NCBI GenBank assembly: GCA_963798485.1
Contig: CAWCTR010000025.1
Span: 1 to 32,827 of the forward strand
DNA from: an uncultured delta proteobacterium
GTDB lineage: Bacteria > Desulfobacterota > Desulfomonilia > UBA1062
Direction: 5' to 3'
DNA length: 32,827 bases
Position numbers and translations under genes: made by a program. Positions 13,820 through 32,827 of this stretch are shown here, piece by piece (the stretch's first letter is position 1; the number at the start of each line of letters is the position of its first letter). The notes under the pieces were generated by a model. The model was not told the DNA's origin. It was given only the letters and a program-made list of their open reading frames with translations, and did not search any database.

Positions 13820-14632
13820 CTACAGCCACCGTTTTCTGCGCTTATACGACTTCACGTCACGGTATGACCTGGCTGCGCCGCCTGCGCTTACCCCGAGGTA
13901 GAACTCCTTCACGTCGGGGTTCTCTTTCAGGTTGTCCGCCTCTCCCTCCATCACGACGCGGCCATTCTCCATGACATAACCATAGTGGGCGATCTGCAAT
14001 GCCATATTGGCGTTCTGCTCCACCAGGATGATGGTGGTCCCCTGTTCTTCGTTGATCCGCCGGATGATCCGGAAGATCTCTTTCACGACGAGCGGGGCGA
14101 GGCCGAGCGATGGCTCGTCTAAGAGGAGCAGCTTGGGATGGGCCATGAGTGCCCTGCCCATGACCACCATCTGGAGCTCGCCCCCGCTGCAGTAGCCGGC
14201 CAGGGCCTTCCTTCGCTTCACCAGGGCGGGGAAATAGTCATATACAAGCGCCAGGTCCTTCTTGTAAGGCTTTAACCAGCGGGTGGCTGTGCCGACCTTC
14301 AGGTTCTCTTCAATGGTGAGGTACTTGAAGGGCTGCCTGCCCTCCAGGACCTGGATGATGCCGAGGCGGGTGATCTCCTCGGGAGACAGGTTCTGGACGA
14401 GCTTGGAGTCGTACATGATACTGCCGTCCGTAACCTTGCCGTTTTCCGGCTTGAGCAGTCCGGATATGGCCTTGAGCGTCGTGGTCTTGCCCGCACCGTT
14501 ACTCCCGAGCAGCGACACGATGCGGCCGCGCAGTACCTTGAGCGACACCCCCTTGAGCACCTGGATTACATCCGAATAGACCACGCTGATGTTGTTGAGC
14601 TGGAGCAGGGTATCGGTAGTTAAGTCTTCCAT
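13820..14632 (-). CDS. Liv-type (HAAT) ABC transporter ATP-binding protein, LivF-like
   Basis: Walker A GSNGAGKTT, CSGGELQM, LLLLDEPSLGLAP, VEQNA. Start placed at ATG 14632 (GAGG RBS), not 14752. Confidence 0.93.
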   Translation of the reverse strand: MEDLTTDTLLQLNNISVVYSDVIQVLKGVSLKVLRGRIVSLLGSNGAGKTTTLKAISGLLKPENGKVTDGSIMYDSKLVQNLSPEEITRLGIIQVLEGRQPFKYLTIEENLKVGTATRWLKPYKKDLALVYDYFPALVKRRKALAGYCSGGELQMVVMGRALMAHPKLLLLDEPSLGLAPLVVKEIFRIIRRINEEQGTTIILVEQNANMALQIAHYGYVMENGRVVMEGEADNLKENPDVKEFYLGVSAGGAARSYRDVKSYKRRKRWL

Positions 14633-14642
14633 TGCTTGAACC

Positions 14643-15713
14643 TCAGTAGGAGAACGGCCACAGCCGGAAGGTGGACCGGACGATGCGCCATAGTTCTGCA
14701 AGCCCCTTTGGCTCAAAGAGGATAAACAGGACAATGGCCAGACCAAAGGCAAACTCGCGCAGCGATGCCATGTTGAGTCCGAACCCGCTCAGTGCGGATA
14801 TGTTCATCATGGCATCCGTTGCAAAGCGCAAAACCTCATTGAGGCCCGTGATGAAGATCGCCCCGAAGATGGAGCCCGGGATGCTGCCGAGTCCCCCGAT
14901 AATGACCATGGCGATGTATTCCACTGAGAGCCCCAAAGTAAAGGGCTCTGTGGATATGCTCCTCATGTAGTATGCCCACAAGGCCCCTGCAAAGCCTGCA
15001 TAGAAGGAGCTGACGGCAAAGGCGAGCAGCTTGTAGAAGAAGATGGGTATACCCATGCCCTCTGCGGCCCGGTCATTGTCGCGGATGGCAATGAAGGCCC
15101 TGCCATAGCGTGTTCTCATGAGGTTGGATGCGACAAAGGTGAGGCCAACTAGGCAGACGAAGATCAGATAGAAGAACCGCCTGTCCGAGTCGATGGCAAG
15201 CCCGAACAGTTTGGCTGCAGGCAGCATGATGCCCATGGTCCCCCTGGTGAGGCTGTCCCAGTGCACCAGGATGTATTCGATGATAAACTGGCCGGCCAGC
15301 GTCGCGATGGTGAGGTAGAGCCCCTTGAGCCTGCCCGAGGGGATGCCGAAGATCATACCCACGAAGGCGGTGACGATCCCTGATGCCGGGATCGAGATCC
15401 ACAAGGGAAGGCCGACCCTCGTGGCCAGGATGGCCCCTGCATACGCCCCTACGCCGAAGAAGGCCCCGTGGCCCAGCGAGATCTGGCCTGTGAACCCGAT
15501 GAGGATGTTCAGGCCCAAGGCGGCAATGGCCGCGATCCCCGTCATGTTGATGACATAGAGCAGATACGGCGAGCTGATAAAGGGCACTACCCCGAAGAGG
15601 AAGGCGAGCCCGAGGAAGGCCCACATGCGGCCGAAATCCGTCTCGAAGATGGTAAGCTCCTGGCCGTAGTGTTCCTTGTAGTTCCCGCACGGGTGGAATT
15701 GAAGCCGCTTCAT
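14643..15713 (-). CDS. Liv-type ABC transporter permease, LivM-like
   Basis: GLNILIGFTGQISLGHGAFFGVGAY, RLKGLYLTIATLA, GRAFIAIRDN, IIGGLGS; likely start ATG 15713. Confidence 0.93.
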   Translation of the reverse strand: MKRLQFHPCGNYKEHYGQELTIFETDFGRMWAFLGLAFLFGVVPFISSPYLLYVINMTGIAAIAALGLNILIGFTGQISLGHGAFFGVGAYAGAILATRVGLPLWISIPASGIVTAFVGMIFGIPSGRLKGLYLTIATLAGQFIIEYILVHWDSLTRGTMGIMLPAAKLFGLAIDSDRRFFYLIFVCLVGLTFVASNLMRTRYGRAFIAIRDNDRAAEGMGIPIFFYKLLAFAVSSFYAGFAGALWAYYMRSISTEPFTLGLSVEYIAMVIIGGLGSIPGSIFGAIFITGLNEVLRFATDAMMNISALSGFGLNMASLREFAFGLAIVLFILFEPKGLAELWRIVRSTFRLWPFSY

Positions 15714-15714
15714 G

Positions 15715-16593
15715 CTACACCCTCTCGATCTCAACCAGGCCGAAGAGGCCGTAGGGCTTGATGAGCAGGATGATGACCAAGACGATATACGGGATCACGT
15801 CGCGCAGTGACGGCGATATGTATCCGCTCGTAAAGGTCTCCAGCAGCCCGATGATGATCCCGCCGATAATGGCCCCGCCGATGCTGTCCAGTCCGCCCAG
15901 GATGACCACCGGGAAGACCTTGAGCCCGATGGAGCTGATCTCGTGCACATTGATACCGTTGATGATTCCCAGCACAATGCCGCTCATGCCTGCGACCATG
16001 GCGGCGATGGCCCAGGAGAGGGCAAAGACCTTCTTCACGTGGACGCCTAAGGACAGGGCGGCAGTCTGGTTGTCGGCCACGCTCCGCATGAAGATGCCCT
16101 GGGGCGAGTACTTGAAGAAGAGCCCGAAGAGCAGCAAGAAGCAAACACCCAGCAGAGAGGAAGCCACATATACCGGGGGGATGTAGATAGTGCCTATTTG
16201 TATGGCAAGGGCCTTTGGCAGGAAATCGGGGTAGGTCTGGAGGTTGCCCCCGAAGAAGAACAGGAGCAGGCCCTTGAACATGGATGCCAGGCCCACGGTG
16301 AGCATGATGACAAAGATGAGCGACTCGCCGATTAAGGGCCGCAGGAAGAGGCGCTCCACCACAAACCCCAGCACGAAGCTTCCGGCAAGGGTGATGAGGA
16401 AGGCCAGCACCACCGGTACCTTGACCCACGCTACCAGCACGAGGAAGAGATACGCGCCTATGGCCATGAGCTGGCCGTGTGCGAAGTTCAGCACGGACGA
16501 CGATTTGAAGATCATGACAAAGCCCAGCGCGGACAGGCCGTAGAGAAGCCCGACGCTCAGGCCGTTTATGAGGAGCTGTAAGAAGAAGTCCAT
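15715..16593 (-). CDS. Liv-type ABC transporter permease, LivH-like
   Basis: LQLLINGL...ALGFVMIFKSSSVLNFAHG, MRSVADN, VVILGGLDS, KPYGLFG. Confidence 0.94.
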   Translation of the reverse strand: MDFFLQLLINGLSVGLLYGLSALGFVMIFKSSSVLNFAHGQLMAIGAYLFLVLVAWVKVPVVLAFLITLAGSFVLGFVVERLFLRPLIGESLIFVIMLTVGLASMFKGLLLFFFGGNLQTYPDFLPKALAIQIGTIYIPPVYVASSLLGVCFLLLFGLFFKYSPQGIFMRSVADNQTAALSLGVHVKKVFALSWAIAAMVAGMSGIVLGIINGINVHEISSIGLKVFPVVILGGLDSIGGAIIGGIIIGLLETFTSGYISPSLRDVIPYIVLVIILLIKPYGLFGLVEIERV

Positions 16594-16620: not shown

Positions 16621-18573
16621 TCAAAAAACCGTTATCACATGGGCTGTTGTCTCGACCATGCCCACCTGGCCGTCGCGGTAGCGGACCTTGCCCTTGACCG
16701 GCAGCTCGCTCAGACCTGTGTACATGGCCTCGATCATGGGTAGGTAGAGGCCGTAGACAAAGCGCCTCCGCACCTTGCCGGTGCGGGTGAGTTCCTCATC
16801 GTCGGCATCGAGGAGCTTGTAGAGCAGGATGAACCGCTTTATCTTCATGGGCCCGGGCAGCTGTTCGTTCACCTTCTTCACCTCTTCGAGGATGAGGTGC
16901 TCAACCTCGGCCCGCCCGGACAGGTCCGTATAGGTGGTGTACGGGATCATACGGTCCTCGGCCCAGTTGCCCACATTTCCCAGGTCGATGTTGATGAGCG
17001 CCGTGATAAAAGGCCGGCCCTCACCGAAGATGATGGTTTCCTTGATATATAAGGAAAATTTGAGCCTGGTCTCGATGAAGTCAGGGGAGAAGGCATTGCC
17101 TTCCTTGTCCCTTATGATGTCCTGCTTCCGCCCGATAATGACCAGGTGGCCGTCGTCGTCGAGGTAGCCGGCATCCCCTGTCAGAAACCAGCCGTTCTCA
17201 AAGGCCTTTTCCGTGGATTCATAGTCATTGTGGTAGCCTGCGAAGACCGAGTCGGAAAGCAGCATGACTTCCTGGTCTTTGGATATCTTCACCTCGGTGC
17301 CGGGCAGGGCCTTGCCCACGGTCTCCGGTTTTACCTCGTCATCGGGCTGCACCTGGAAGATGCCGCAGGTCTCGGTGAGGCCGTAGCACTGCTTCAGGTT
17401 CAACCCGCAGGCCCTGAAAAAGCGGATCACATCAGGGCTGATGGGGTGGCCGCCGGTGTAGGCGCTGATGAAACCCGAGCAGCCCACCCTGTCGAGCAGG
17501 GGGTTGAACACGAGGGCCTTGGCCATACCATTGAGGAGGCGCAGGCCAAACGGTATGGGCTTCCTTAATGCTTTCCGGTCCACACAGGCTGTGCCGATGC
17601 GTTCGGCATAAGTGAACATGGCGCGGTTGACGGGCCCGGCATCGTCGATCTTCACCCGGATCTTTGAAGCCAGGTCCTCCCAGAAGCGTGAAGAGGAGAT
17701 GAGGAGGCTAGGCCCGATCTCCCGGAAGTCGGCCGTCACGGTCTCGGGCGTCTCGGGGAAGTTCATGGTCATCCCGCCGAGCAAGGCCACGCCGAATCCC
17801 CACATCTGGTCCACGATCCAGGCGGGCGGGGTCATGGAGAGCCAGTTGGACCCGATGCCCACCGGGTTGGATTCTATCCATTTCCTGCCCATTGCCGCAT
17901 AGTTCCGGTGGGTGAGCATGGCGAGTTTGGAGATGCCCGTAGTGCCCGATGTCAGGATCATGTGGCACACCTCGTCCGGCTTGCCCTTGGCCATCTCCTC
18001 GGCGAACAGGCCCGGATGCCTGGCCTCGTGCCTTTTCCCTAGGTCAAGCAGGTTTTTATAGCTTATGAGGAGCTTGTTCTCCGCATACCCCCGCATGCCC
18101 GTGGGGTCCACGTAGATGATCGTCTGGACGTGCGGGAGCTTGCCCTGCTGCTCCAACAGCTTGTCCACCTGCTCCTGGTCCTGGACCAGGATGAAGCGCG
18201 CCTGGATACGGTTCAGCGCAGAGGTAAGCTCGCTCGCCACGGCAGAGGTGAAGAGGTTCAGGCTGACAGCGCCCATGCCCTGAGCGCCAAGCTGGCTGAA
18301 CAGCCACTCGGGGTGGTTGTTCAGGATCATGCCTACATGGTCGTGCCGGTTGAGGCCTAAGGCCTTGAGCCCAAGCCCGGTATACTTCACATAAGAAAGG
18401 TAGTCTTCCCAGGTGAAGGCCTGCCAGACGCCATAGGTCTTCTCCCGGATGGCGATGTGTGCGTGGCCGAGAAGTCCGGCCTGATGATCAAGGATCTGGG
18501 GCAGGGTGCACGTGGAAAGCCTGTCCAGGTGAACGGGGCTGACCTTGGGAAAAGTCTTTCCGCTTATGCCCAT
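16621..18573 (-). CDS. Long-chain acyl-CoA synthetase-like AMP-binding protein
   Basis: TSGTTGISK, YGLTET, TVGK, WFLTGDAG, IIGRKQD, ELTRTGKVRR adenylate-forming motifs. Confidence 0.92.
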   Translation of the reverse strand: MGISGKTFPKVSPVHLDRLSTCTLPQILDHQAGLLGHAHIAIREKTYGVWQAFTWEDYLSYVKYTGLGLKALGLNRHDHVGMILNNHPEWLFSQLGAQGMGAVSLNLFTSAVASELTSALNRIQARFILVQDQEQVDKLLEQQGKLPHVQTIIYVDPTGMRGYAENKLLISYKNLLDLGKRHEARHPGLFAEEMAKGKPDEVCHMILTSGTTGISKLAMLTHRNYAAMGRKWIESNPVGIGSNWLSMTPPAWIVDQMWGFGVALLGGMTMNFPETPETVTADFREIGPSLLISSSRFWEDLASKIRVKIDDAGPVNRAMFTYAERIGTACVDRKALRKPIPFGLRLLNGMAKALVFNPLLDRVGCSGFISAYTGGHPISPDVIRFFRACGLNLKQCYGLTETCGIFQVQPDDEVKPETVGKALPGTEVKISKDQEVMLLSDSVFAGYHNDYESTEKAFENGWFLTGDAGYLDDDGHLVIIGRKQDIIRDKEGNAFSPDFIETRLKFSLYIKETIIFGEGRPFITALINIDLGNVGNWAEDRMIPYTTYTDLSGRAEVEHLILEEVKKVNEQLPGPMKIKRFILLYKLLDADDEELTRTGKVRRRFVYGLYLPMIEAMYTGLSELPVKGKVRYRDGQVGMVETTAHVITVF

Positions 18574-18582
18574 GGCAAGCCC

Positions 18583-19434
18583 CTATGCCCCTTCCTGAGC
18601 GTCCAGGCCCAGGTCCGTGGTGTCCCCGAGATAGGCCTTGATGACCTCGGGGTGGTCCTGGATCTCTTCGGGAAGGCCTTCGGCGAGCTTTTCGCCGAAG
18701 TTGAGCACAATGACCCGCTCGGAGATGCTCATGACAATGGACATGTCATGCTCCACCAGGATCATGGTCTGGCCCCAGCCGTCGTGCAGCTCTAAAAGGA
18801 AGCGCACCATATCTTCCTTTTCTTCCAGGGTCATGCCGGCAAAAGGCTCGTCCAGCACCAGAAGGCTGGGCTCCGAGGCCAATGCCCTGCCCAGTTCCAC
18901 CCGCTTGCGCAACCCATAGGGCAGCGAGCCCACAAGCTCTTTGCGGATGGACTGCATTTCAAGAAAGTCGATTATCTCTTCCAATATCTCGTGATGCCTG
19001 ATCTCTTCTGTTTTGACCGAGGGGGAATACAGGCACGCCAGGGCGAAGTTGTATGATGACCGGCTATGGCGGGCCAGCAGCATGTTCTGGAGAACGGTCA
19101 TGCCCGGGAAGAGCTCGATGTTCTGAAAGGTCCTTCCGATTCCGAGCGAGGTAAGTTTGTGGGTGTGCATATGCACGATGCTCTGCCCATTAAAGATAAT
19201 ATCGCCGCTTGTCGCCTTATAGAAACCCGTGATGCAGTTCAGCAGGCTTGTCTTGCCTGCGCCGTTGGGCCCGATGACAGCCACGAGCTCGCCGGTATGG
19301 ACCGACAGGTCCACATTCTTGACAGCCTGGATGCCGCCGAAGGCGAGAGACAGGCCTTTGACCTCAAGCTCGGCCTGCCTCGCCGCCATCTTATCGGCGG
19401 AGAATATTCGTGGATGCCCTCGAAATGCCCTCAC
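18583..19434 (-). CDS. Liv-type ABC transporter ATP-binding protein, LivG-like
   Basis: FGGIQAV, GPNGAGKTS, RTFQNIELF, LPYGLRKRVELGRAL, LDEPFAG, VEHDM; alternative start ATG 19389. Confidence 0.93.
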   Translation of the reverse strand: MRAFRGHPRIFSADKMAARQAELEVKGLSLAFGGIQAVKNVDLSVHTGELVAVIGPNGAGKTSLLNCITGFYKATSGDIIFNGQSIVHMHTHKLTSLGIGRTFQNIELFPGMTVLQNMLLARHSRSSYNFALACLYSPSVKTEEIRHHEILEEIIDFLEMQSIRKELVGSLPYGLRKRVELGRALASEPSLLVLDEPFAGMTLEEKEDMVRFLLELHDGWGQTMILVEHDMSIVMSISERVIVLNFGEKLAEGLPEEIQDHPEVIKAYLGDTTDLGLDAQEGA

Positions 19435-20656: not shown

Positions 20657-20722
20657 AACACTACCTCCCTTAGAGTTTTTTTACTATCCACCACACCGGT
20701 GATGGGATACCTCATCATGAAC

Positions 20723-20770
20723 AAAAAAAAGCCGTAGGTAGACAAAACCGGTCTCCCTACGGCTTTTTTT
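20723..20770 (-). terminator. Intrinsic terminator of the Phe attenuator
   Basis: Minus strand GCCGTAGGGAGAC-cggtttt-GTCTACCTACGGC (12/13 bp stem) followed by T8 (20730-20723), about 66 nt upstream of the SBP start codon. Confidence 0.9.
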
Positions 20771-20805
20771 GACTAGATCTAAAAAAGCTTAAGCGCAGGC
20801 AGACC
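20750..20805 (-). promoter_or_regulatory. Antiterminator of the Phe attenuator
   Basis: Minus-strand GGTCTGCCTGCG (20805-20794) pairs with CGTAGGGAGACC (20761-20750; terminator 5' arm) at 11/12 positions including one G-U pair. Confidence 0.82.
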
Positions 20806-20858
20806 TACTCAAAGAAGAAGAATCCGAAAGAATTATTTGTCAGATGTCTAGGTGCCAT
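20805..20858 (-). CDS. Phenylalanine-rich attenuator leader peptide MAPRHLTNNSFGFFFFE
   Basis: ATG GCA CCT AGA CAT CTG ACA AAT AAT TCT TTC GGA TTC TTC TTC TTT GAG TAG; 5 Phe in the last 7 sense codons; stop abuts the antiterminator arm. Confidence 0.85.
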   Translation of the reverse strand: MAPRHLTNNSFGFFFFE

Positions 20859-21129
20859 AGACTAGGCCCTTTAAAGAAAACTCCCTAAGAAGTCAAGGGA
20901 AAACTGGCAAGAGGTGTAATGTGGGCAGCATATGAAGCACAGGTATTTTTTAAATGGGGAAGGAAAGAGTTGCAGAGTATTAAATATCCTCACTGGCAAT
21001 CAATAAACCAGGTATATAAGGGCCGGATTCACATTTTCACCTATTTGTTGTGTTAAACCGGAGACCATCCACAATTTATCCGGATCATGAACTCCCTGGC
21101 CCATATCTTTTGTCTGTAACATAAGTATT

Positions 21130-21177
21130 TTCTAATGTTATTCTAATGATCATTTAATCTTCTCCCATGTATAGGAT
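21130..21177 (+). promoter_or_regulatory. Putative OmpR/PhoB-family response-regulator box and -10 element
   Basis: TTCTAATG at 21130 and 21141, ATTTAATC at 21152 (11-bp period), then TAGGAT at 21172-77 upstream of the 21211 gene. Confidence 0.45.
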
Positions 21178-21210
21178 CAACATCTTAAAAAACAATTTGG
21201 AGGTAATATC

Positions 21211-21504
21211 ATGAAAAAGGTTATTAGTCTGATCGCAGTACTGGCACTGTTATGCTTCACCACGATGGTTTTTGCAGCAGATGCAGCGAAGGCAGATGCA
21301 ACGAAAGCTGCTCCGGCAGCTACCGCTGTTACAAAACCCGCTCCTGATGCAGCCAAGGGTGATGTGGCAACTCCTGACAAGGCCAAAGTAGACAAAAAAG
21401 CAAAGAAGGTTAAGAAGGCAAAGAAGGTTAAGAAGGCAGCAGTAAAGAAGGACGAGAAGAAAGATGCAGCAGCTCCTGCCCCGGCAGCACCGGCCGCTCA
21501 GTAG
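21211..21504 (+). CDS. Secreted Ala/Lys/Pro-rich low-complexity small protein (Asr-like composition)
   Basis: GGAGGT RBS; Sec signal MKKVISLIAVLALLCFTTMVFA; KKAKKVKKAKKVKKA tract. Confidence 0.85.
   Translation: MKKVISLIAVLALLCFTTMVFAADAAKADATKAAPAATAVTKPAPDAAKGDVATPDKAKVDKKAKKVKKAKKVKKAAVKKDEKKDAAAPAPAAPAAQ
21400..21438 (+). repeat. 18-bp in-frame tandem repeat (AKKVKK x2)
   Basis: GCAAAGAAGGTTAAGAAG twice plus GCA. Confidence 0.85.
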
Positions 21505-21530
21505 TAAGGTAAAATAAAGAGGTCTGGAGG

Positions 21531-21938
21531 ATGAAAAGGTTAGCGCTACTGATATGCGCCCTTGGGGTTTTCTCCCTCACCTGTTTCGGACAGGATACGG
21601 TCCTGCCCGCACAGAAAGGGGAAACTCCTCCTCCAGCCTCTCTTTCTCAAAAGATAACCAAAGCCAAACCCTTGGAAGTGAAGGGTCATACAGAGACAGT
21701 GATCTTGGCTGATCCGTCGAAGGGCATCAGACCCAAGATATCAATCACAGGTGAAGACGGCAAGCACTATACCTTCCTGGTGAGGGCCACAACCACCATA
21801 TATGGACAAGACTGGAAGGCCATAGCCCTCGACAAGATTGTAAAAGGTCAGCAGGTAAGGGTTCAATACATCACCAACAAAGATGGCATGTCCGTAGCAT
21901 TATCCATCAAGCCGGTCAGCAAGGAAAAACCTCTGTAA
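21531..21938 (+). CDS. Secreted hypothetical protein with small beta-barrel (DUF5666/OB-fold-like) domain
   Basis: GGAGG RBS, signal peptide, TFLVRATTTIY...IALDKIVKGQQVRVQY...VALSI pattern. Confidence 0.75.
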   Translation: MKRLALLICALGVFSLTCFGQDTVLPAQKGETPPPASLSQKITKAKPLEVKGHTETVILADPSKGIRPKISITGEDGKHYTFLVRATTTIYGQDWKAIALDKIVKGQQVRVQYITNKDGMSVALSIKPVSKEKPL

Positions 21939-21985
21939 TACACCTGATAATTCCGGGTTTCGTTTCATCAATCCTTTTTCTGTAA

Positions 21986-22079
21986 TGCCATTCTGACACT
22001 TTTAGTGGTGCTGCTTAGGGCATTTTGTCATTTTGTACCTGCCCAGGCCCTATCAGAAGGCTTTTCTGCCAATATGGCA
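21986..22079. promoter_or_regulatory. Putative enhancer (UAS) sites for a sigma-54 activator
   Basis: TGCCA-ttc-TGACA (21986), TGTCA-ttt-TGTAC (22026), TGCCA-ata-TGGCA (22067, perfect dyad); 40-41 bp period. Confidence 0.55.
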
Positions 22080-22114
22080 ATATCAGGGAAAACCAGTTTC
22101 TTATTATTGCCTGT

Positions 22115-22127
22115 TATCAATAAGTTA
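22115..22127 (+). promoter_or_regulatory. IHF binding site
   Basis: TATCAA-TAAG-TTA matches WATCAAN4TTR exactly and lies between the UAS and the -24/-12 promoter. Confidence 0.7.
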
Positions 22128-22142
22128 TAAATTGCCAGCACT

Positions 22143-22157
22143 TGGCACGCCCCTTGC
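22143..22157 (+). promoter_or_regulatory. Sigma-54 (-24/-12) promoter
   Basis: TGGCACG-CCCC-TTGC is a perfect TGGCACG-N4-TTGC match, about 50 nt upstream of a start codon with RBS. Confidence 0.85.
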
Positions 22158-22205
22158 CTTCTATAAGATAGAAAGAAAAAAACAAACCCCAGGGAGGGCA
22201 AGACA

Positions 22206-22382
22206 ATGATGACATTATGGATCGTAATCGGCGCACTGTTCATGACCGGCATTGGTATCAGGTTCACCTACAGGGTATTGGGACTCACTCCGGCAGAAGC
22301 AACCGCAGTGTTCATCATAGTAGTCACCTTGGTTACCATCAACACCGGTCCGGCACGTGAGATCCTCATGAACCTGTTCTAA
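22206..22382 (+). CDS. Small two-helix membrane protein (58 aa), not in ORF track
   Basis: MMTLWIVIGALFMTGIGIRFTYRVLGLTPAEATAVFIIVVTLVTINTGPAREILMNLF; GGGAGG RBS; directly downstream of the sigma-54 promoter. Confidence 0.8.
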   Translation: MMTLWIVIGALFMTGIGIRFTYRVLGLTPAEATAVFIIVVTLVTINTGPAREILMNLF

Positions 22383-22423
22383 GACCGGACAGGGATAGGA
22401 AAGGATAAGGAAGGAGGAAGGCC

Positions 22424-22663
22424 ATGAAGACAAAGAAAGAAAAGATCGAAAGGGCACTGGCTAACAGGCTCAGCAGGATAAGTGCATACAGCTTAGTGCT
22501 CGTTACGATGACCTTCCTCGGCCTCTATGGTGGCATGTATCTCGATAAGGTTCTTGGCATGGCACCCAACTTCACGATGATAGGACTGGTGGCTGGCATC
22601 GTACTAGGCTTCAAGGGGTTCATCCAGGAAGTCATGATCGAGAGAAAGGTAAAGAGGGCTTAG
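22424..22663 (+). CDS. AtpZ/AtpI-family (ATPase gene-1-like) small membrane protein
   Basis: GLYGGMYLDKVLGMAPNFTMIGLVAGIVLGF matches the G..G..LD..LG..P.F...G...G...GF pattern; AAGGAGG RBS. Confidence 0.78.
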   Translation: MKTKKEKIERALANRLSRISAYSLVLVTMTFLGLYGGMYLDKVLGMAPNFTMIGLVAGIVLGFKGFIQEVMIERKVKRA

Positions 22664-22719
22664 CCATGACAATCATCTTTGTAACCATAGGCTTCACAGC
22701 CTTCCTGGCACTGACTGCA

Positions 22720-23348
22720 AGGTTCTTGAAACGAGCAGAGCACGCTCCCAGGACAGAGAACAATCAATAATCAGGTTCTCAAGGCTTGATGAAAAGCAGA
22801 GCATAGACCAGTTCGACTTCTCGTTCCATCCGTCCAGAAAAACCAACAAGTCCAGAATCCTTAACCTTCTCGACCTGGAGTTCATCATAGAGAGGAAAGA
22901 CGTCATCCTCATCGGCAATCCCGGAGTGGGCAAGTCCTTCATTGCCAAGTGCCTGGCTTACGCCTCGACTCAGGCAGGCATAAAAACGCTGTTTGTATCC
23001 ACCATGGAGATGATCAACCAGCTCATAGCTGCGGAGGGTGACAGGACCATCCTGAAGAAGCTCCATTACTACCAGTCATTCGATCTGCTGGTCTGCGATG
23101 AAATCGGCTATCTCCCCCTCGGGTCCCAGGGCTCCAACTTCTTCTTCCAGGTCATAAGCGCCCGCCATCAGAAGAAGTCCACGCTCATCACCACGAACCT
23201 GCCGTTCTCGGAGTGGGGAAACGTATTCGACAACACCACGGCCGCCACAGCCATAGCAGACAGGCTGGTACATAACTCTGAAATCATAATATTCGAGGGG
23301 CCAAGCTATCGGAAACGAGACAGGAAAGAACAGAAGAAATCTGAATAG
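22720..23348 (+). pseudogene. istB: IS21-family helper ATPase IstB, 5'-truncated
   Basis: The frame of ORF 22926 extends upstream as RFSRLDEKQSIDQFDFSFHP...VILIGNPGVGKS (Walker A), then LLVCDEIGY, LITTNLPFSEWGNVF, AIADRLVH, GPSYR. No start codon for the N-terminus and no istA. Confidence 0.88.
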
Positions 23349-23516
23349 ACCGGGAGGCTATAAGCTCAAAAGCTATAATACAGGGAGGCTTTAAAATACG
23401 GCCCGGCCGATTAAATGCGGATTCAATCATCCCCCGCAGCACGTCTCTGCGCCCTGCATATCTCCCTGCAGCTTTTTAAACGATGATTTCTGCCGGGTTC
23501 TTGGCCGATGATAACA
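22720..23516 (+). mobile_element. IS21-family remnant (partial istB plus right end)
   Basis: istB fragment followed by ...CGATGAT...GGCCGATGATAACA ending in CA at 23516 with a repeated CGATGAT motif, as expected for an IS21 right end. Left boundary approximate. Confidence 0.7.
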
Positions 23517-23890
23517 GCTGGCAGCGTTTAGAAATAAAGGAATCAATGTGTCTGACACAACGAAGGAGACCCTATTACCGTATGAGACACAATATGCTTT
23601 CATCAGAGATTTGTTGGAGTATAGAAAGGTGCGTTATGGTCTGTCCCAACTAAATCAATTGATAGAGCATATCGATCCAAGCATTGGCACAGAGGGTCCT
23701 TGCAATTTCATATACCATAAAAAAACGCTAATACACAATGATATCAATATCTTATATCAGTTTTCAGGGTCGACTAACTAGAGAAATTAATTCTCGGACT
23801 TTTGCAATTGGCTATTTACAATATATTAAGTCTAATGTAATTTATTGATTGAATTGATATGGAATACATCTATGAAATGGAAATTGCATT

Positions 23891-23985
23891 TTACTAATAA
23901 GTGCCTAATTGAGAAGATCACCAATAAGCCTATGAAGAGCTTTTGCGTATGAATTTAGTTCGGCTTAATATGCACTTCTTAGTAA
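23891..23985. repeat. 95-bp element bounded by 14-bp inverted repeats (possible MITE)
   Basis: TTACTAATAAGTGC (23891-904) and GCACTTCTTAGTAA (23972-985) are 13/14 complementary. Confidence 0.5.
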
Positions 23986-24041
23986 CTTCAAGGGCACAAT
24001 AATATTTAAGGACAAAATCATTCAAGGGGTAGATTGCTTTA

Positions 24042-25187
24042 ATGGGCCTATTTAGAGTCATCCTTGCGTTATCTGTTGTGTTGTTCCATGTAAATGGGGG
24101 CAATGGTTATTGCATAGCTGGAGGCAAAGCAGCTGTTCAATGTTTTTTTATTATTTCAGGCTTTTATATGTCCCTAATATTGAATGACAAGTATACTGAT
24201 AAATCTTCTAATAAGACCTCCCTTTTACTGTTTTACACCAATCGAATATTCCGTTTGTTGCCTTTGTATTACTTTTTTTTAATAGTCTCACTATTCTCAC
24301 TATGCCTTTGCTTCTCGCTTAATATTTCTCATTACAACTCTATCCCGAATTATTGTAACATAAACTATTTTAATAGGTTGGACATAACAACAAAAGTATA
24401 TCTAATCATTTCCCAATTTCTTGTTATTGGAATGGACTTATCTAATTTTCTTGGCATTAACCTCAATAATGGCAGTTTATTTATAAGTTCTACTGCGGTT
24501 CACCAAACCCCTTCATGGGCATTTTTTTTCATTCCACAGGCATGGACCTTAAGTCTAGAATTTTATTTCTATCTACTTGCACCATTCTTTGTGAAAAGGA
24601 CAAATATTCCAACTACAATCATTGTGATAATACTATGTTTTATTATGCGATTTTTTATTTATTTGTATGGATATAACTATACTCCATGGACTTATAGATT
24701 TTTCCCGACTGAACTGGCACTGTTTTTGTTGGGGACCTTGTCATATCAATTGTATTTGTTCCTAAAAAGCAAAAACCTATTTCATAATTTAATTTCCATC
24801 ACAATCTCTGGTACTATTTTTATTTTAGCCTTCTGTTACCAATTCTTGCCACAACAAAATTCAGTTCCTTGCTTTTTTAATGATGCACAATTAATTTTTT
24901 ATTCGACTGTTATTATTGGATTGCCGTTTTTATTTCATATCAGCAAACAAAACAGTATTGACCGTTTTATTGGTGAACTTTCATATCCTATATATTTGTG
25001 TCACCTAATAATTATACCATTTTTTGGTGTACCAATTGTTTATAGTGAAACTGCTGCTGATATTTTTTATATTTTATTTTTCACTATTATATTTTCTATT
25101 TTTTCTGTAATCTTTATCCAAAAGTATGTTGATAATTATCGACAAAGACGTTATCAGATTATGTGTAGTACCTCAGAAAAAATCTGA
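24042..25187 (+). CDS. Acyltransferase-3 family (OafA-like) membrane O-acyltransferase
   Basis: FRVILALSVVLFH, AVQCFFIISGF, NRIFRLLPLY, AWTLSLEFYFY, IGELSYPIYLCH; polytopic hydrophobic protein. Confidence 0.92.
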   Translation: MGLFRVILALSVVLFHVNGGNGYCIAGGKAAVQCFFIISGFYMSLILNDKYTDKSSNKTSLLLFYTNRIFRLLPLYYFFLIVSLFSLCLCFSLNISHYNSIPNYCNINYFNRLDITTKVYLIISQFLVIGMDLSNFLGINLNNGSLFISSTAVHQTPSWAFFFIPQAWTLSLEFYFYLLAPFFVKRTNIPTTIIVIILCFIMRFFIYLYGYNYTPWTYRFFPTELALFLLGTLSYQLYLFLKSKNLFHNLISITISGTIFILAFCYQFLPQQNSVPCFFNDAQLIFYSTVIIGLPFLFHISKQNSIDRFIGELSYPIYLCHLIIIPFFGVPIVYSETAADIFYILFFTIIFSIFSVIFIQKYVDNYRQRRYQIMCSTSEKI

Positions 25188-25557
25188 CAAGGAGTATCCT
25201 TTCTGAAACAAACAGGGAACCTTTTCAAAAAGCAGTTTCATCCAAGCCTGTAATCAGTTCAACAATGATGAGATAACAAAGGAAGAGCTGATATCAAAAA
25301 CAGTTTCCATTGGATTTATTACCACCCCCAATTTCGAGGGTGGGTTAGCAGGTTTATATAGTCTCCTTAGCTCACCAGTTTTTTCACTGCCTCGATGACC
25401 GGTGCAGTGAACAGAGCTACAAGGACTGCATACAGGGCAAAAGATCCGACTGCCCAAGTAAGATATATCTTCTCATAAAGATACTTCAGAGATGGGAGAT
25501 GGTGTCTCAGTATATTTATATTGAATATCAATAGGATAATCATATACAAAATAAAAT

Positions 25558-26286
25558 ATGGTTAAGGATATAACTCTTGGTATTGTTTGCCCTATGGCAA
25601 ATGAGTTCGATAATTGTGAGCAGTTTGTCAAGGATGTAATAGAAGTTTGCAATGAGTATGAATTTAAATCAATTTCTTTATTGGTAATTTTTGACAATGC
25701 ATGCACTGACGGCACGTTTGATAAATTAAAGTCTTTATCCAATGAACTTCCGGAACTGGTTGTGATATTTTCTCCTGAGAATAGATGTGTTGTCGATGCA
25801 TACCTTCGTGGTTATAGAGAAGCACTGAAAATGGGGTGTGATTGGATATTGGAAATAGATGCAGGATATAGTCATCAGCCTTCTGATCTCCATCATTTTT
25901 TTAATAAAATGCAACAAGGGTATGACTGTGTGTTTGGAAGCAGATTTTGCAACGGAGGTAAATATATTAACAGCCTGAGTACACATTACTTAATAAGCCG
26001 TGGTGGAACAATCCTTACTAATATCCTTCTCGGTACAAAGTTAAAGGATATGACAAGTGGATTTGAGCTTTTTACTCGTGATGCTTTAAAAAATATATTA
26101 GATAAAGGGATTACATCTCACGGTCCGTTTTTCCAGACAGAAATCAAATTTTATGCACACAACTTTAAAATAGCCGTGGTCCCTATACAGTACCATTCAA
26201 CCGGTCAAACAGCTAAACTTAAATACATTTTTGATTCGTTAGAATGTTTGTGGAGATTATTTCAAAGGAGAGTTGCCACTTCTTAA
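25558..26286 (+). CDS. Family 2 glycosyltransferase, dolichol/polyprenol-phosphate-sugar synthase-like
   Basis: IVCPMANE, DNACTDGT, EIDAGYSHQP, DCVFGSRF, LKDMTSGF, FQTE motifs of DPM1-like GT2. Confidence 0.9.
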   Translation: MVKDITLGIVCPMANEFDNCEQFVKDVIEVCNEYEFKSISLLVIFDNACTDGTFDKLKSLSNELPELVVIFSPENRCVVDAYLRGYREALKMGCDWILEIDAGYSHQPSDLHHFFNKMQQGYDCVFGSRFCNGGKYINSLSTHYLISRGGTILTNILLGTKLKDMTSGFELFTRDALKNILDKGITSHGPFFQTEIKFYAHNFKIAVVPIQYHSTGQTAKLKYIFDSLECLWRLFQRRVATS

Positions 26287-27574
26287 GGGTACCTCTAATA
26301 ATTCTCCCAGCCAAGCGCATATATAAAGTGCATTAACTTATTGAATATGTTATATAATTGATAGATTAAATGGAGCTGAAGGGGGGGATGATGAAGCAAC
26401 TGGGATTATTTGACTGGGGGAATCGTTATACCAGGATCGATAAAGGTGGAGACCCTCTGATGAAGCTGAATAAGGTCATTGACTGGGAGGCGTTCCGTCC
26501 GTTGCTCATGAATGTGAGGGAGAAGGAGCGCAAGAACAATGCAGGAGCGAAGCCATACGATGTGGTGTTGATGTTCAAGAGCCTGGTGATCCAATCGCTG
26601 TATAACCTTTCTGATGATGAGTTGGAGTATCTGCTATTAGATCGTCTGACGTTCATGCGGTTTTTAGGCCTTGGTCCTGGGGAGAGGGTACCGGATGCGA
26701 AGACGATCTGGTTGTTCCGGGAGCAGCTGAAGGAGGCCGGGCTTGTGGAGAAGCTGTTCAAGAACTTTGATCGATATTTGCAGGAGAGCGGGTTTGTAGC
26801 ACGGAAGGGGCAGATTGTGGATGCCAGCATTGTGTCGGTACCAAAACAGAGGAACACCCGTGAGGAGAACGCACTGATAAAGGAAGGTGGTAAGCCTGGA
26901 GAGTGGAATGAGCCCAAGAGTCGGCAGAAGGACACTGATGCCCGGTGGCTCAAAAAGAACGGCAAGAATTATTATGGGTACAAGAACCATGTCAGCGTTG
27001 ACGTGAAGAACAAGCTTATCCGAGGTTATACTGTTACTGATGCCAGTGTGCATGACTCTCAGGTATTTGGAGATCTTCTGCAAGGGGGTAACAGAAGCAG
27101 GGATGTGTATGCAGATTCTGTATATCGATCTGAGGAAATCCTGGAGATGCTGCGCAAGCAAGGATATCGCGAGCATGTACAGCGTAAGGGTTATCGGAAC
27201 CGGAAGCTTACGGAATGGGAGAAGCGAGGGAATCACACACGCTCAAAGATACGATCCCGCATCGAGCATGTATTTGGAGTGCAGGCCATGATGGCAGGAG
27301 ATCTGCTATTGAGGACGATTGGGATTGCTCGAGCGTGGGTCAAAATCGGGCTGAGGAACCTTGCCTACAACATGTTTCGTTTCCAAACACTCGTGGCTGC
27401 CAGGTGAGGTATGCCTGAATGGATTAAATCATGTTCCAGGGAGAGAATAAACCACGGGTGAGGCCGTAAAAACTCGATAATTGCACATCACAACAGGCAG
27501 ATTCCAGGAGTAATGCGTAGGTGAATCAACTCCAACATGATGCTTCCATAAAAAGTGAATTATTCGAGGTGGCC
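26287..27574 (+). mobile_element. Complete IS5-family insertion sequence (1288 bp)
   Basis: Left end GGGTACCTCTAATAATTC versus reverse complement of right end GGCCACCTCGAATAATTC (15/18). TTAA duplicated at 26283-86 and 27575-78; GC higher than flanks. Confidence 0.93.
26370..27407 (+). CDS. IS5-family DDE transposase
   Basis: LYNLSDDELE...DRLTFMRFLG...VPDAKTIWLFRE, IVDAS, DTDARW, YYGYKNH, ASVHDS, YADS, RSRIEHVFG. True start may be ATG 26388 or 26391. Confidence 0.96.
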   Translation: MELKGGMMKQLGLFDWGNRYTRIDKGGDPLMKLNKVIDWEAFRPLLMNVREKERKNNAGAKPYDVVLMFKSLVIQSLYNLSDDELEYLLLDRLTFMRFLGLGPGERVPDAKTIWLFREQLKEAGLVEKLFKNFDRYLQESGFVARKGQIVDASIVSVPKQRNTREENALIKEGGKPGEWNEPKSRQKDTDARWLKKNGKNYYGYKNHVSVDVKNKLIRGYTVTDASVHDSQVFGDLLQGGNRSRDVYADSVYRSEEILEMLRKQGYREHVQRKGYRNRKLTEWEKRGNHTRSKIRSRIEHVFGVQAMMAGDLLLRTIGIARAWVKIGLRNLAYNMFRFQTLVAAR

Positions 27575-27597
27575 TTAATTTCTTGCTTGAGGAAATT

Positions 27598-28614
27598 ATG
27601 AACACCCCAATATCAATAGTTGTGACTTCGATAGCTAAACCCAATAGGGCACTTAGCTGTTTAGCAGAAGGTTGCATCAATCATGGGTTACGACTCATAG
27701 TAATAGGAGATGTTCTTAGTCCAGCAGATTTTCATATTAATAATTGTGACTTTATCAGTATAAAAATGCAGAAGCAGCTTGATTTAATATATCCAAAGCT
27801 ATGTCCAGAACGACACTATGCACGTAAAAACATTGGTTACCTTATGGAAATTAAAAAGGGAGCAGAGATTATCATTGATACCGATGATGACAATATCCCA
27901 TATAAATCATTCTGGAACCAAAGGAATCGTGAAGTTGATGTTTCAACTATTAATACCCCTGGCTGGGTAAATGTGTATCGATATTTTACTGATGAATTGA
28001 TATGGCCTCGTGGATTTCCTCTTAATAAAATAAACGTGCAGAATCAACCATATGAATCATTACCTTTGAAAACAATGGATTGTCCAATACAACAAGGATT
28101 GGTCAATGAAGACCCTGATGTTGATGCTATTTTTCGATTAGTTTTCTCCCAGACAATACATTTTAGAGAAGATAGGAAATTGGTACTGGCTAAAGGTTCA
28201 TGGTGTCCATTTAATAGTCAGAATACAACATGGTGGTCTGATGCCTTCCCTCTATTATATCTCCCATCCACCTGCTCTTTTAGAATGACGGACATCATAC
28301 GCAGTTTTGTTGCACAACGTATTGCATGGGAGAATGAATGGACAGTTCTCTTCCATGAACCTAACATGTGGCAAGAACGTAATGAACATGATCTGATGAA
28401 AGATTTTAATGATGAGATTCCAGGTTATTTAAATAATGATCGTATCAGTAATGAATTGAAAAAGTTATCCATAAGAAAAGGGATAAATAATCTTATGTAT
28501 AATTTAGAGAATTGTTATGAAAAATTAATGGAGATGGGTGTTATTAATAAGAAGGAAATCAGTTTGCTTAGTGCATGGATTAAAGATTTAGAAGATATAA
28601 AGCAGAGAAGATAG
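27598..28614 (+). CDS. STELLO/DUF288-like glycosyltransferase
   Basis: IVVTSI, HYARKNIGYL, IDTDDDN, WPRGFPL, QQGLVNEDPDVDAIFRL, CPFNSQNT, FRMTDIIRS, QERNEHD; GAGGA RBS before ATG 27598. Confidence 0.88.
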   Translation: MNTPISIVVTSIAKPNRALSCLAEGCINHGLRLIVIGDVLSPADFHINNCDFISIKMQKQLDLIYPKLCPERHYARKNIGYLMEIKKGAEIIIDTDDDNIPYKSFWNQRNREVDVSTINTPGWVNVYRYFTDELIWPRGFPLNKINVQNQPYESLPLKTMDCPIQQGLVNEDPDVDAIFRLVFSQTIHFREDRKLVLAKGSWCPFNSQNTTWWSDAFPLLYLPSTCSFRMTDIIRSFVAQRIAWENEWTVLFHEPNMWQERNEHDLMKDFNDEIPGYLNNDRISNELKKLSIRKGINNLMYNLENCYEKLMEMGVINKKEISLLSAWIKDLEDIKQRR

Positions 28615-28681
28615 AAACTATCGAAGTGAATGACAAAAAGTATGTAAAATATAGCCCATGCTGGGTGAGTAAAATTGGCCG

Positions 28682-28711
28682 CAACGCCCTTATTTTTAAG
28701 GGTGGTGTTTT
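28682..28711 (+). terminator. Possible intrinsic terminator after the STELLO-like gene
   Basis: CGCCCTTA-tttt-TAAGGGTG hairpin followed by GTGTTTT. Confidence 0.4.
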
Positions 28712-28804
28712 CAATTGCTTATTGTTATGATTAGTTTTAAATTGAAAAAACCATGACCGAGGTTCTAATCAGATAAAATTGAATCACTTTGTGAGAACAC
28801 ATAT

Positions 28805-29359
28805 ATGAAAAAAACGAAACAGAACAAGCACAAAAATATAACTTCTATAAAGCAACCATCTATTCCTGAACATGCAGAAGGATCATTTATGAAAACAGAT
28901 AGGTGGTCTATTATAATTATAACTGTGATTGTGATAGTGATTTTAATTTGTACATATTTTTTATGGCCTAAGGTAACAATAACTCCTGGAAAAATCATCA
29001 ACCCTAGAGAACCCTTTAATACCTCATTCATTATTCAAAATCATTCTATTTATTCAATCTATGGCATAAAAAGTGAATGTCTAGTTCTTAATATTGAAGA
29101 TGATAACCATCATATATTTAATAGGTTAACGGCTAATATAGATACTGGATATATAGAAAAACTAAGTCAAAGTGAAGCAAAGCTAATAATTTTCAAATTA
29201 AATATAACTACTAAAGAGTTGGAGCGGAGCGTACTGAAAGCTAACATTAAATTTCTACTATCATACAAATTACCATTTATTGGATTACAATTATCAAAAT
29301 CTTTTCCTTTAACGGTTCAGAAAACCTCGGCAAATACATACAAATGGTTTGCAAATTGA
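28805..29359 (+). CDS. Hypothetical single-pass membrane protein
   Basis: 184-aa ORF in very AT-rich DNA; one strongly hydrophobic helix followed by a beta-rich domain; no family recognised. Confidence 0.65.
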   Translation: MKKTKQNKHKNITSIKQPSIPEHAEGSFMKTDRWSIIIITVIVIVILICTYFLWPKVTITPGKIINPREPFNTSFIIQNHSIYSIYGIKSECLVLNIEDDNHHIFNRLTANIDTGYIEKLSQSEAKLIIFKLNITTKELERSVLKANIKFLLSYKLPFIGLQLSKSFPLTVQKTSANTYKWFAN

Positions 29360-29707
29360 TAATATAAAACACAAAATATACTTTTATTTTAAATATGAGT
29401 TGCAATCTAAATCTAGATACACGCCTACACAAGATCTTCTTTAAAAAGATGAATGAAAGTATGGATTTCATTCAAATCGTCACGTATCTGTTATGAAAAT
29501 GATAGACTTTGTATGTCTCAACCCAAGATCTACAGTTTTCAACTATCTTAAAACCAAGAAGAAATAACAGATTATAATGATCTTTGAAAAGGAACTCTGT
29601 TTAGATTTCATTGAAAGGATGAACATGGTATAAGAGATATATTCAATTTGATTATTTACTCTTTGCGAGGGGTATAATCAACTAATACCAAGTTTGAGGA
29701 TAATAAT

Positions 29708-30274
29708 ATGAAAAGAATACTCATAATTGTATGTTTCATCTTATTGCTTTTCAGCCCGCTCTTCGCTAACTACAAAGAGGCTCTAAAAAAAGGTGATTTT
29801 GCAGGAGCTCTGAAGGAACTCAAACCACTTGCCCAGAAGGGAGATGCAAAGGCGCAAGAAAACCTTGGTTTAATGTATGCCACAGGACGAGGTGTGCCAC
29901 AAAACTTGGTAGAGGCAGAAAAGTGGATCAAAAAAGCGGCGGAACAGGGACTGCCCGAGGCACAATATAACCTTGGGATAATATATTTCAACGGCCAGGG
30001 AGTACCTCAAAACAATGCTGAGGCGATGAAGTGGTTCAGAAAATCTTCAGATCAGGGATATCCCAGAGCGCAATACAGTCTTGGAGTTATGTATTTTCAA
30101 GGGTTAGGTGTGCCCAAGAATTTAGTACAAGCATACATGTGGTGGTATTTAGTAGGGTCACAAGGAAATCGGGATGCAGCGAAAGCCATTAACGACATAA
30201 AAGGAAAAATGACCTCTGCTCAAATTTCAGAGGCTAAAAAACTAGCAAGCAAATGGAAACCACCAAAGAAATGA
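29708..30274 (+). CDS. Secreted Sel1-repeat protein
   Basis: Signal peptide; AQENLGLMYATGRGVPQN, AQYNLGIIYFNGQGVPQN, AQYSLGVMYFQGLGVPKN; GAGGA RBS. Confidence 0.95.
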   Translation: MKRILIIVCFILLLFSPLFANYKEALKKGDFAGALKELKPLAQKGDAKAQENLGLMYATGRGVPQNLVEAEKWIKKAAEQGLPEAQYNLGIIYFNGQGVPQNNAEAMKWFRKSSDQGYPRAQYSLGVMYFQGLGVPKNLVQAYMWWYLVGSQGNRDAAKAINDIKGKMTSAQISEAKKLASKWKPPKK

Positions 30275-32808: not shown

Positions 32809-32827
32809 CACTAAGTTGAGGATCTCC

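Follow-up and report, generated by a model that had tools for sequence, protein, structure and literature searches.

A conserved, probable phenylalanine leader-peptide attenuator ahead of an ABC importer and acyl-CoA ligase operon in uncultured Desulfobacterota

The DNA analyzed here is a stretch of 32,827 nucleotides (nt) from an uncultured delta proteobacterium of the phylum Desulfobacterota (contig CAWCTR010000025.1 of assembly GCA_963798485.1), hereafter called the window. On its minus strand lies an operon encoding a LivK-type periplasmic binding protein, two ATP-binding cassette (ABC) ATPases, two permeases and two acyl-coenzyme A (CoA) ligases (Table 1), as stated in an earlier reading of the same letters (the original prediction), which had described an ABC importer with acyl-CoA ligases. 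With a Peripla_BP_6 binding protein, two BPD_transp_2 permeases and ATPases of the LivG and LivF types in one predicted operon, the importer belongs to the HAAT/LivK type. Directly upstream is a leader with a promoter, a short upstream open reading frame (uORF) rich in phenylalanine (Phe) codons and an intrinsic terminator, whose end is separated by 66 nt from the ATG (20656) of the gene for the 402-amino-acid (aa) binding protein. We conclude that this element is real, conserved and unannotated and that it most likely is a Phe leader-peptide attenuator, classical in its mechanism and unusual in the genes that it would regulate. Since the mechanism is that of the textbooks, the value of the leader lies in what it says about the genes behind it.

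The uORF encodes the peptide MAPRHLTNNSFGFFFFE followed by TAG, and Phe accounts for five of its 17 codons, four of them consecutive. A recheck of the coordinates on the minus strand placed both this uORF and the -35 hexamer TTGACT exactly where they had been predicted. A 12-nt strand that begins in the stop codon (the G of TAG and then GTCTGCCTGCG; 20805-20794) pairs with 20761-20750 at 11 of 12 positions, one of these being a G-U pair, and this pairing with the terminator 5' arm also agrees with the original prediction, the partner being made of 11 nt of that arm and the first base of the loop. The terminator itself consists of a 5' arm GCCGTAGGGAGAC, a 3' arm GTCTACCTACGGC and a U8 tract. 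It had been described as a 13-base-pair stem followed by U8; the U8 tract stands, and the stem of the window genome comes to 12 pairs with one G/A mismatch. Likewise, the proposed picture of two mutually exclusive hairpins is correct as to the exclusive pairings and incomplete as to their number, as there is a third conserved helix, between the stop region and segment B (AGATCTAGTC), and an inner helix of the antiterminator formed by the U-run of the spacer (GCTTTTTT) and the A-run ahead of the terminator. By inspection, this spacer/A-run element can be seen in most leaders of class 1 (those of the window genome and its near relatives). When the whole 251-nt leader was folded, its minimum free energy (MFE) was -78.8 kcal/mol (z = -3.09), a value that 1 of 200 shuffled sequences folded as well as, and the MFE structure has the stop region paired with segment B and the terminator formed. 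A simple consensus scan for promoters and terminators flagged neither the promoter nor the terminator of the leader and is thus uninformative here; the candidate -10 hexamer lacks the final T, and the mismatch in the stem probably defeats the perfect-stem rule.

Table 1. Positions of the leader elements, the genes of the operon and the sister leaders (window coordinates unless a locus or contig is named)
Feature	Position	Strand	Basis or remark
-35 hexamer TTGACT	20891..20896	-	TTGAC invariant in 23/23 aligned leaders
Candidate -10 hexamer TAAAGG, 17 nt past the -35	20868..20873	-	inferred; T24 invariant, A25 and A26 at least 90% conserved
Leader uORF MAPRHLTNNSFGFFFFE + TAG, 17 codons	20805..20858	-	ATG at 20858; TAG 20807-20805
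Phe codons of the uORF	20828-20826, plus four consecutive 20822-20811	-	read from the sequence
Antiterminator 5' strand (G of TAG + GTCTGCCTGCG)	20794..20805	-	pairs with 20750-20761
Spacer GCTTTTTT	20781..20788	-	pairs with A-run + GC (20762-20769) inside the antiterminator conformer
Segment B AGATCTAGTC	20771..20780	-	pairs with 20801-20810 (last codon, stop, GGTCT); competes with the antiterminator
A7 run ahead of the terminator	20764..20770	-	pairs with the U-tract to lengthen the terminator, or else with the U-run of the spacer
Intrinsic terminator	20723..20763	-	arms 20763-20751 and 20743-20731, loop 20750-20744, U8 20730-20723
Periplasmic binding protein, Peripla_BP_6, HAAT/LivK type, 402 aa	19448..20656	-	Pfam E = 1.2e-47
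LivG-like ABC ATPase	18583..19434	-	Pfam/NCBIfam
650-aa AMP-binding acyl-CoA ligase, FadD11-like	16621..18573	-	Pfam E = 5.9e-56
LivH-like permease	15715..16593	-	Pfam/NCBIfam
LivM-like permease	14643..15734	-	Pfam/NCBIfam
LivF-like ABC ATPase	13820..14752	-	Pfam/NCBIfam
PaaK-family acyl-CoA ligase, divergent, 418 aa	12523..13779	-	NCBIfam PaaK models
iorA leader, uORF MFQKTATQAYYYGFYFRKGVCP	L080:2184-2310; window genome contig C18 ~64,680-64,810	plus	terminator GGTCATGGGCAAAACCCATGGCC + T7
Tyr leader MATNLQSTGAYYYYYYYYVTGLPAG, eight consecutive Tyr codons	L135:1553-1630	locus minus strand	genome G269, from a different family within the phylum

The original prediction expected the Phe codons to be conserved upstream of orthologous binding-protein genes, and this is what we found. 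We took the 420 nt upstream of 26 such orthologues, leaving out locus L044, whose 5' end is missing. In 23 of these 26 regions there is a uORF of 16-20 codons that starts with ATG, contains the run FFFF(F) and ends with TAG (examples of uORF ends are FGFFFFD, SFFFFFG, INFFFFD and GFFSFFFFE, each then followed by TAG). All 23 uORF-bearing orthologues share at least 70% identity, and the three without a uORF are the most distant ones, at 58-61%. In the alignment of the 23 leaders, the TTGAC of the -35, the ATG and the sequence TAGGTCT are invariant, and so are most positions of the Phe run. Toward its N-terminus the peptide is free to vary, and all differences in length are whole codons. It is this conservation, and not the evidence of a single sequence, that takes the leader beyond chance. 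The parts of classical attenuator geometry that the original prediction had recognized, namely a Phe uORF, an antiterminator strand at its stop codon and a 5' arm for which two strands compete, are all conserved.

Within the class, the leader occurs in some of the genomes. Matches to the leader DNA were obtained in 22 of 61 genomes including the window's own, that is, in 21 of 36 other genomes of its family and in 0 of 24 genomes of a second family. A pattern composed of the antiterminator strand, both terminator arms and the T-run was present in 27 of the 122 genomes of the class, a single time in each (its own family, 26 of 51; the other family, 0 of 70), and the reversed pattern, used as a control, gave 0 matches across the same 122 genomes. 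In an even sample of the phylum, 8 of 401 genomes carried the pattern, three of them from other families. Of the 12 occurrences of the strand motif in the genome of the window, just one is in a leader context. Wherever it was found, the leader stands directly before the transporter operon, and the gene upstream of it differs between lineages. The closest loci come from metagenome-assembled genomes (MAGs) labelled Desulfomonilia, delta proteobacterium, Syntrophaceae, Syntrophales, Smithellaceae and Smithella; as several loci come from the same genomes, the locus counts from different searches are not independent of one another.

A second form of the leader, class 2, was found in ten loci (L058-L067) upstream of orthologues that are 69-74% identical, in Syntrophales and Smithella MAGs. 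Here GAG, AAG or GGG stands in place of TAG, so that the frame crosses the GGTCTGCCT strand (read as 'VCL') and stops in segment B; the peptide MADVNHNIVGRFFSFFSFFGKVCLLRS is an example, and both the Phe-rich part and the RNA strand are kept. The uORFs of this class have GAGG-like sites ahead of the ATG, and locus L066, judged from its sequence, carries the same kind of uORF. We also observed tandem terminators in L058-L062, L064 and L134, where a second, terminator-like hairpin (GGCCGTGGA...TCCACGGCC TTTTTT) lies a few bases past the first. Six orthologous operons of 62-67% identity (L068-L073) have a different upstream region, without a Phe uORF. Their 500 nt of upstream DNA share a promoter-like box, TTTTTTACTTGC, and a long leader (about 300 nt) in which stretches similar to GGAGGTGGTGG occur, perhaps a different control element.

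We then asked how well the pairings hold across the aligned leaders. Among the 23 leaders, 97.3% of the cells of the terminator are paired, with one compensatory pair, and 18 of the 22 relatives in alignment A1 pair all 13 positions of the stem, the other four breaking one or two pairs near the loop. The antiterminator is paired in 98.2% of cells, with six pairs varying on one side only (slid controls, 29-43%), and the helix between stop region and segment B in 94.3%; over all of these counts, slid controls reached 21-48%. When both forms were aligned together (34 leaders), 92.1% of terminator cells were paired and six pairs had changed on both sides, a covariation score that 0 of 500 shuffles reached, and compensatory changes in the stem, which the original prediction had expected, are therefore present. 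The antiterminator was paired in 96.8% of cells in the same 34 leaders (again 29-43% in slid controls), with nine one-sided pairs and a covariation score of 0.221 as against 0.191 in shuffled alignments, a score reached by 4 of 500 shuffles. Its pair 40:110, for example, is G-U in 14 leaders, G-C in 10 and A-U in 8. Where the two terminator arms have changed jointly, from A-U to G-C or from U-A to C-G, the upstream strand still pairs with the 5' arm, as U-G or G-C. These data are good evidence, short of proof, that the pairing is maintained, as the sequences are related and the changes are mediated by G-U pairs. The component parts of the attenuator, their conservation and their alternative pairings are in this way direct observations.

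In the window genome, the antiterminator conformer, from the stop codon to the 5' arm and including the inner GCUUUUUU/AAAAAAGC helix, has -25.6 kcal/mol, the terminator core has -18.3 kcal/mol, or -25.4 kcal/mol with the A/U extension, and the region that holds the hairpin of stop region and segment B has -16.2 kcal/mol. We modelled the effect of a ribosome by folding transcripts cut just past the 5' arm, in which all bases up to 11 nt beyond the first base of the A site were kept single-stranded, and by counting those of the 23 leaders whose MFE structure in this equilibrium model had at least eight antiterminator pairs. With the A site on a Phe codon at position -21 relative to the stop codon, the antiterminator formed in 22 of the 23 leaders, and it formed in all 23 with the A site on the Phe codons at -15, -12 and -9. 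On the last Phe codon, at -6, the number fell to 14 of 23, and with the A site at -3 or at the stop codon itself it was 0 of 23 in both cases. The proposal that a stall at Phe codons frees the antiterminator and that a ribosome at the stop codon blocks it was thus reproduced on truncated transcripts, in a model.

We read the leader as an attenuator of transcription that works through a translating ribosome and senses how much charged tRNA-Phe is available, and give this reading a probability of about 0.8. Transcription would start a few bases ahead of the uORF, and a ribosome would translate the 17-codon leader. With ample Phe-tRNA, the ribosome would reach the TAG and cover the 12 nt that follow and that make up the antiterminator's 5' strand, or, in the class-2 variant, would read through that strand; with the strand blocked, the terminator hairpin would form and transcription would end at the U8. 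When Phe-tRNA is scarce, the ribosome would pause at the five Phe codons, which lie 6-21 nt ahead of the stop, and leave the strand GGUCUGCCUGCG free to pair with the terminator 5' arm once this is made. The inner helix of U-run and A-run would support the antiterminator, and RNA polymerase would enter the operon. If no ribosome is present, the stop region would pair with segment B and the terminator would form. A shortage of Phe-tRNA would, on this model, give read-through, and plentiful Phe or a lack of translation would give termination. The dependence on ribosome position comes from the folding model, and we infer that the uORF is translated and that the leader responds to Phe.

Several observations weigh against this mechanism. 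Class-1 uORFs have no Shine-Dalgarno sequence, and the uORF of the window starts about 9 nt past the candidate -10, so that initiation would need a very short 5' end. Truncated leaders folded without a ribosome gave the hairpin of stop region and segment B in 11 of 23 cases and the antiterminator in the other 12. Equilibrium folding of the full-length leader gave the terminator as the MFE structure under every mask, and the choice would therefore have to be a kinetic one, made during transcription. As the covariation of the antiterminator is one-sided, proceeding via G-U pairs, and the leaders are closely akin, their agreement could largely be inheritance. Finally, two metatranscriptome runs contain related RNA, each matching 0.05 of the sampled words; the contig pieces are 80-277 letters long, all differ from the window, and some map to the binding-protein gene and to 20818-20906. 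This RNA evidence consists of short contigs of relatives and is uninformative on starts, ends, strand and level.

The U-rich tract of the uORF could also be an RNA element, that is, a switch controlled by a protein or a ligand, or simply a terminator with an accidental open reading frame, for which the position of a ribosome would be irrelevant. Pairing is indeed possible between the UUUGA that closes the Phe run and a UCAAA past segment B, the class-1 uORFs do not have a Shine-Dalgarno sequence, as said above, and translation of the uORF is a prediction. We therefore considered the tract as codons in a frame anchored on the RNA motif GGTCT, independently of any call of open reading frames, and counted the 27 nt upstream of it in 34 leaders. 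Of 306 codons, 0 have C at position 1, 22 have it at position 2 and 104 at position 3. This placement is the TTY pattern of Phe codons and differs from what a plain U-tract would give. Moreover, in locus L135 a scaffold of the same kind (GGTCTGCC ... GGGCAG ... T-run) follows the sequence MATNLQSTGAYYYYYYYYVTGLPAG, in which eight Tyr codons replace the U-rich run, which argues that the tract is exchangeable as codons. Together with the invariant ATG, the whole-codon differences in length, the GAGG-like sites of class 2 and a search of Rfam that returned no riboswitch or T-box match, these results make an RNA element quite unlikely. The same Rfam search gave no family at gathering score for the leader: its 10 weak matches all had E of at least 0.18, the best scoring 23.4 bits against a threshold of 45, and Thr_leader scored 18.7 against 55, on the wrong strand.

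An aromatic sensor of another type would be a nascent peptide that senses free Phe in the exit tunnel and holds the ribosome at the stop codon, as TnaC does with tryptophan. The stop codon does lie inside the regulatory strand, and a ribosome held there would favour termination, which is the same direction of regulation. However, no residue besides the Phe run is conserved, the stop codon has been lost in class-2 leaders, and the sister leaders with Tyr or mixed aromatic codons described below fit codon sensing better, so that we regard this as extremely unlikely. It is also very unlikely that the leader is an independent small gene or RNA and that the operon is transcribed from a second promoter within the 66 nt past the terminator. 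The leader owns a strong -35 and a strong terminator, and terminated attenuator RNAs act in trans elsewhere, rnTrpL of Sinorhizobium being an example. Nevertheless, the consensus scan, which had also missed the leader promoter, found no promoter-like site between 20722 and 20657, the invariable position of the leader before the operon, once per genome, speaks for a function in cis, and conserved competing pairings would be pointless for a constitutive terminator. The preferred reading thus remains an attenuator that senses charged tRNA-Phe through the translating ribosome.

Similar devices are known from other bacteria. Among them, pheL has been described as a Phe-codon leader-peptide attenuator (PMC3082878). 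The leader described here resembles pheL-pheA and pheM-pheST of E. coli and other gamma-proteobacteria in its Phe-codon uORF, a terminator before the first gene, a competing antiterminator and, by our model, de-repression upon shortage of Phe-tRNA. Unlike these, it belongs to uncultured Desulfobacterota and precedes an ABC importer with two acyl-CoA ligases instead of pheA or pheST; the 5' strand of its antiterminator has its start in the stop codon, and segment B, which competes with it, is found farther downstream, within the loop that the antiterminator encloses, and not upstream in the coding region. In trpL, the position of the ribosome selects antiterminator or terminator, and untranslated RNA terminates. 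Our model has both features in common with trpL, whereas its pairings are 1:B, 1:3 and 3:4 in place of 1:2, 2:3 and 3:4, and the sensed amino acid would be Phe. T-box leaders with aromatic specifier codons precede amino-acid transporters in Firmicutes, where uncharged tRNA leads to antitermination. Here, too, uncharged tRNA would turn on uptake genes by antitermination, but the leader has no T-box structure, and sensing would be by way of the translating ribosome and not by direct binding of the tRNA. The Salmonella mgtCBR leader has a uORF with proline codons (PMC3641672). As in mgtA and mgtCBR, the speed of uORF translation would set the RNA structure and thereby the expression of transporter genes; the amino acid, the organism and the type of terminator differ, and the systems are not homologous. 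In the literature within reach, which excluded subscription journals and supplementary files, we found no description of a Phe leader that precedes an ABC transporter, an operon with CoA ligases or iorAB, and none of leader peptides in Syntrophus, Smithella or Desulfomonile.

What the operon does for the cell may be read from its control, because a sensor of Phe-tRNA shortage implies that the operon raises the supply of Phe, and two sister leaders back this implication. A generic scan of the window's own genome for uORFs with codon runs before terminators returned six candidates, of which two are aromatic: the Phe leader and a leader ahead of iorA. In the latter, the TAG of MFQKTATQAYYYGFYFRKGVCP is part of a strand resembling the 3' arm of the terminator that follows, and directly after this leader come iorA-iorB-paaK, a gene with an ACT pair, a Liv-type binding protein, two permeases and two ATPases. 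The iorA product scores 737.9 bits against a cut-off of 650.9, iorB falls just below its cut-off, and the sister paaK scores 639.4 against 646.3. Matches to the DNA of this leader were found in 21 of 61 genomes including the window's own, with varying mixtures of Tyr and Phe; 22 of 24 loci examined show an aromatic-rich uORF, and Rfam gave no match at gathering score. The second sister is the Tyr leader of L135, which is followed by a gene for a 706-aa ADP-forming acyl-CoA synthetase and then by a DDE transposase gene.

The simplest starvation logic would be to induce an importer of the missing amino acid, and the same attenuator could accordingly control the import of Phe itself, of which LIV-type systems are capable, with the CoA ligases serving another purpose or another substrate. 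The binding protein, the permeases and the ATPases are all of the HAAT/Liv family, and the nearest solved chain to the binding protein, 3lkb (E = 4.8e-35), is named an amino-acid binding protein. The gene order speaks otherwise. Binding protein, ATPase, ligase and permease follow each other in this order in all 23 loci L051-L073 as far as the DNA reaches (L060 ends within the ATPase gene), and in all 22 of the 22 loci whose DNA extends to there, a ligase of the 650-aa type separates the ATPase gene from the permease genes; in the window, a ligase of the PaaK family ends the operon. The sister leaders, in turn, stand before iorAB-paaK and before an ADP-forming acyl-CoA synthetase, and these together with the ligases point to CoA thioesters of aryl acids. 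Import of Phe itself hence appears rather unlikely to us.

We prefer, tentatively and at slightly less than even odds, the reading that the operon imports an aryl acid and activates it with CoA for conversion to Phe, to which the embedded ligase, the aromatic leader before iorAB-paaK and the Tyr leader before an acyl-CoA synthetase incline us. An aryl acid such as phenylacetate would be imported and converted to its CoA thioester, indolepyruvate:ferredoxin oxidoreductase would then carboxylate it reductively, and transamination would give Phe; phenylacetate has also been the subject of work on the rumen. A precedent exists in Methanococcus maripaludis, in which, according to PMC4162585, citing Porat et al., aryl acids feed a second pathway to aromatic amino acids via indolepyruvate oxidoreductase. 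This route would be the sink for the imported and CoA-activated acid, and iorA, iorB and paaK do stand behind an aromatic-rich leader here; the proposed link to the operon comes from regulation and gene content.

This assignment of purpose has its own difficulties. The 418-aa ligase stays far below the equivalog cut-offs for PaaK (196.7 against 646.3 bits and 235.9 against 700 bits; TIGR02155/NF041878 models), so that its likeness to PaaK, on sequence grounds, is at the level of the family. For the 650-aa ligase, the closest NCBIfam model is FadD11, at 245.8 bits, below the cut-off of 950. The solved chain 3lkb is named, in full, a branched-chain amino-acid binder, and L068-L073 have the same operon without the leader. 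We also considered Phe auxotrophy and rejected it, as the genome encodes a prephenate dehydratase domain, a finding that also counts against the aryl-acid route. Acyl-CoA ligases embedded in importers of the LIV type are common among the anaerobic Desulfobacterota, and we know of no substrate assigned to such importers.

With somewhat less confidence than in the aryl-acid route itself, we suggest that exchangeable aromatic-codon attenuators (Phe, Tyr/Phe and Tyr) may define a starvation regulon of Desulfobacterota that makes aromatic amino acids from environmental aryl acids. The widespread clusters of iorAB-paaK and the operons of LIV importers with CoA ligases are usually taken as catabolic; were the regulon real, those of these anaerobes would work anabolically. 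Uncultured relatives of syntrophs may, by such means, top up their aromatic amino acids from compounds of the phenylacetate type that their neighbours produce by fermentation. The Phe and Tyr versions on one scaffold would be a natural swap of the sensed amino acid by a swap of codons. For genome annotation, the leader is an unannotated and easily recognized family of cis-regulatory elements.

Other features in and around the leader were recorded. A 30-aa frame starting with TTG (20745-20653) was rejected as a by-product, since its 'GFFLF' comes from the U-tract of the terminator, and a 42-aa frame spans the leader promoter. A small hairpin, CCCATCACCGGTGTGGTGG, lies within 20657-20722, past the terminator and ahead of the Shine-Dalgarno sequence that serves the binding-protein gene, and recurs in slightly changed form in several of the closest relatives. 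A radical-SAM gene lies upstream in relatives and was rejected as a member of the unit, as it is absent here and the upstream gene varies between lineages. In the relatives this gene, on the same strand, lies where the window has other DNA, and the window genome therefore seems to have undergone rearrangement immediately ahead of the promoter. At 21000-24000, upstream of the leader, G+C is lower, at 43-48%, and the DNA includes a truncated IS21 IstB-like open reading frame (22926-23348) and two small ones (21211-21504 and 21531-21938) for which Pfam gave no match. Farther on, at 24001-32827, G+C falls to 32-45% over the last 9 kb, and an Acyl_transf_3 protein is encoded at 24042-25187; this part may be a horizontally acquired surface-polysaccharide region.

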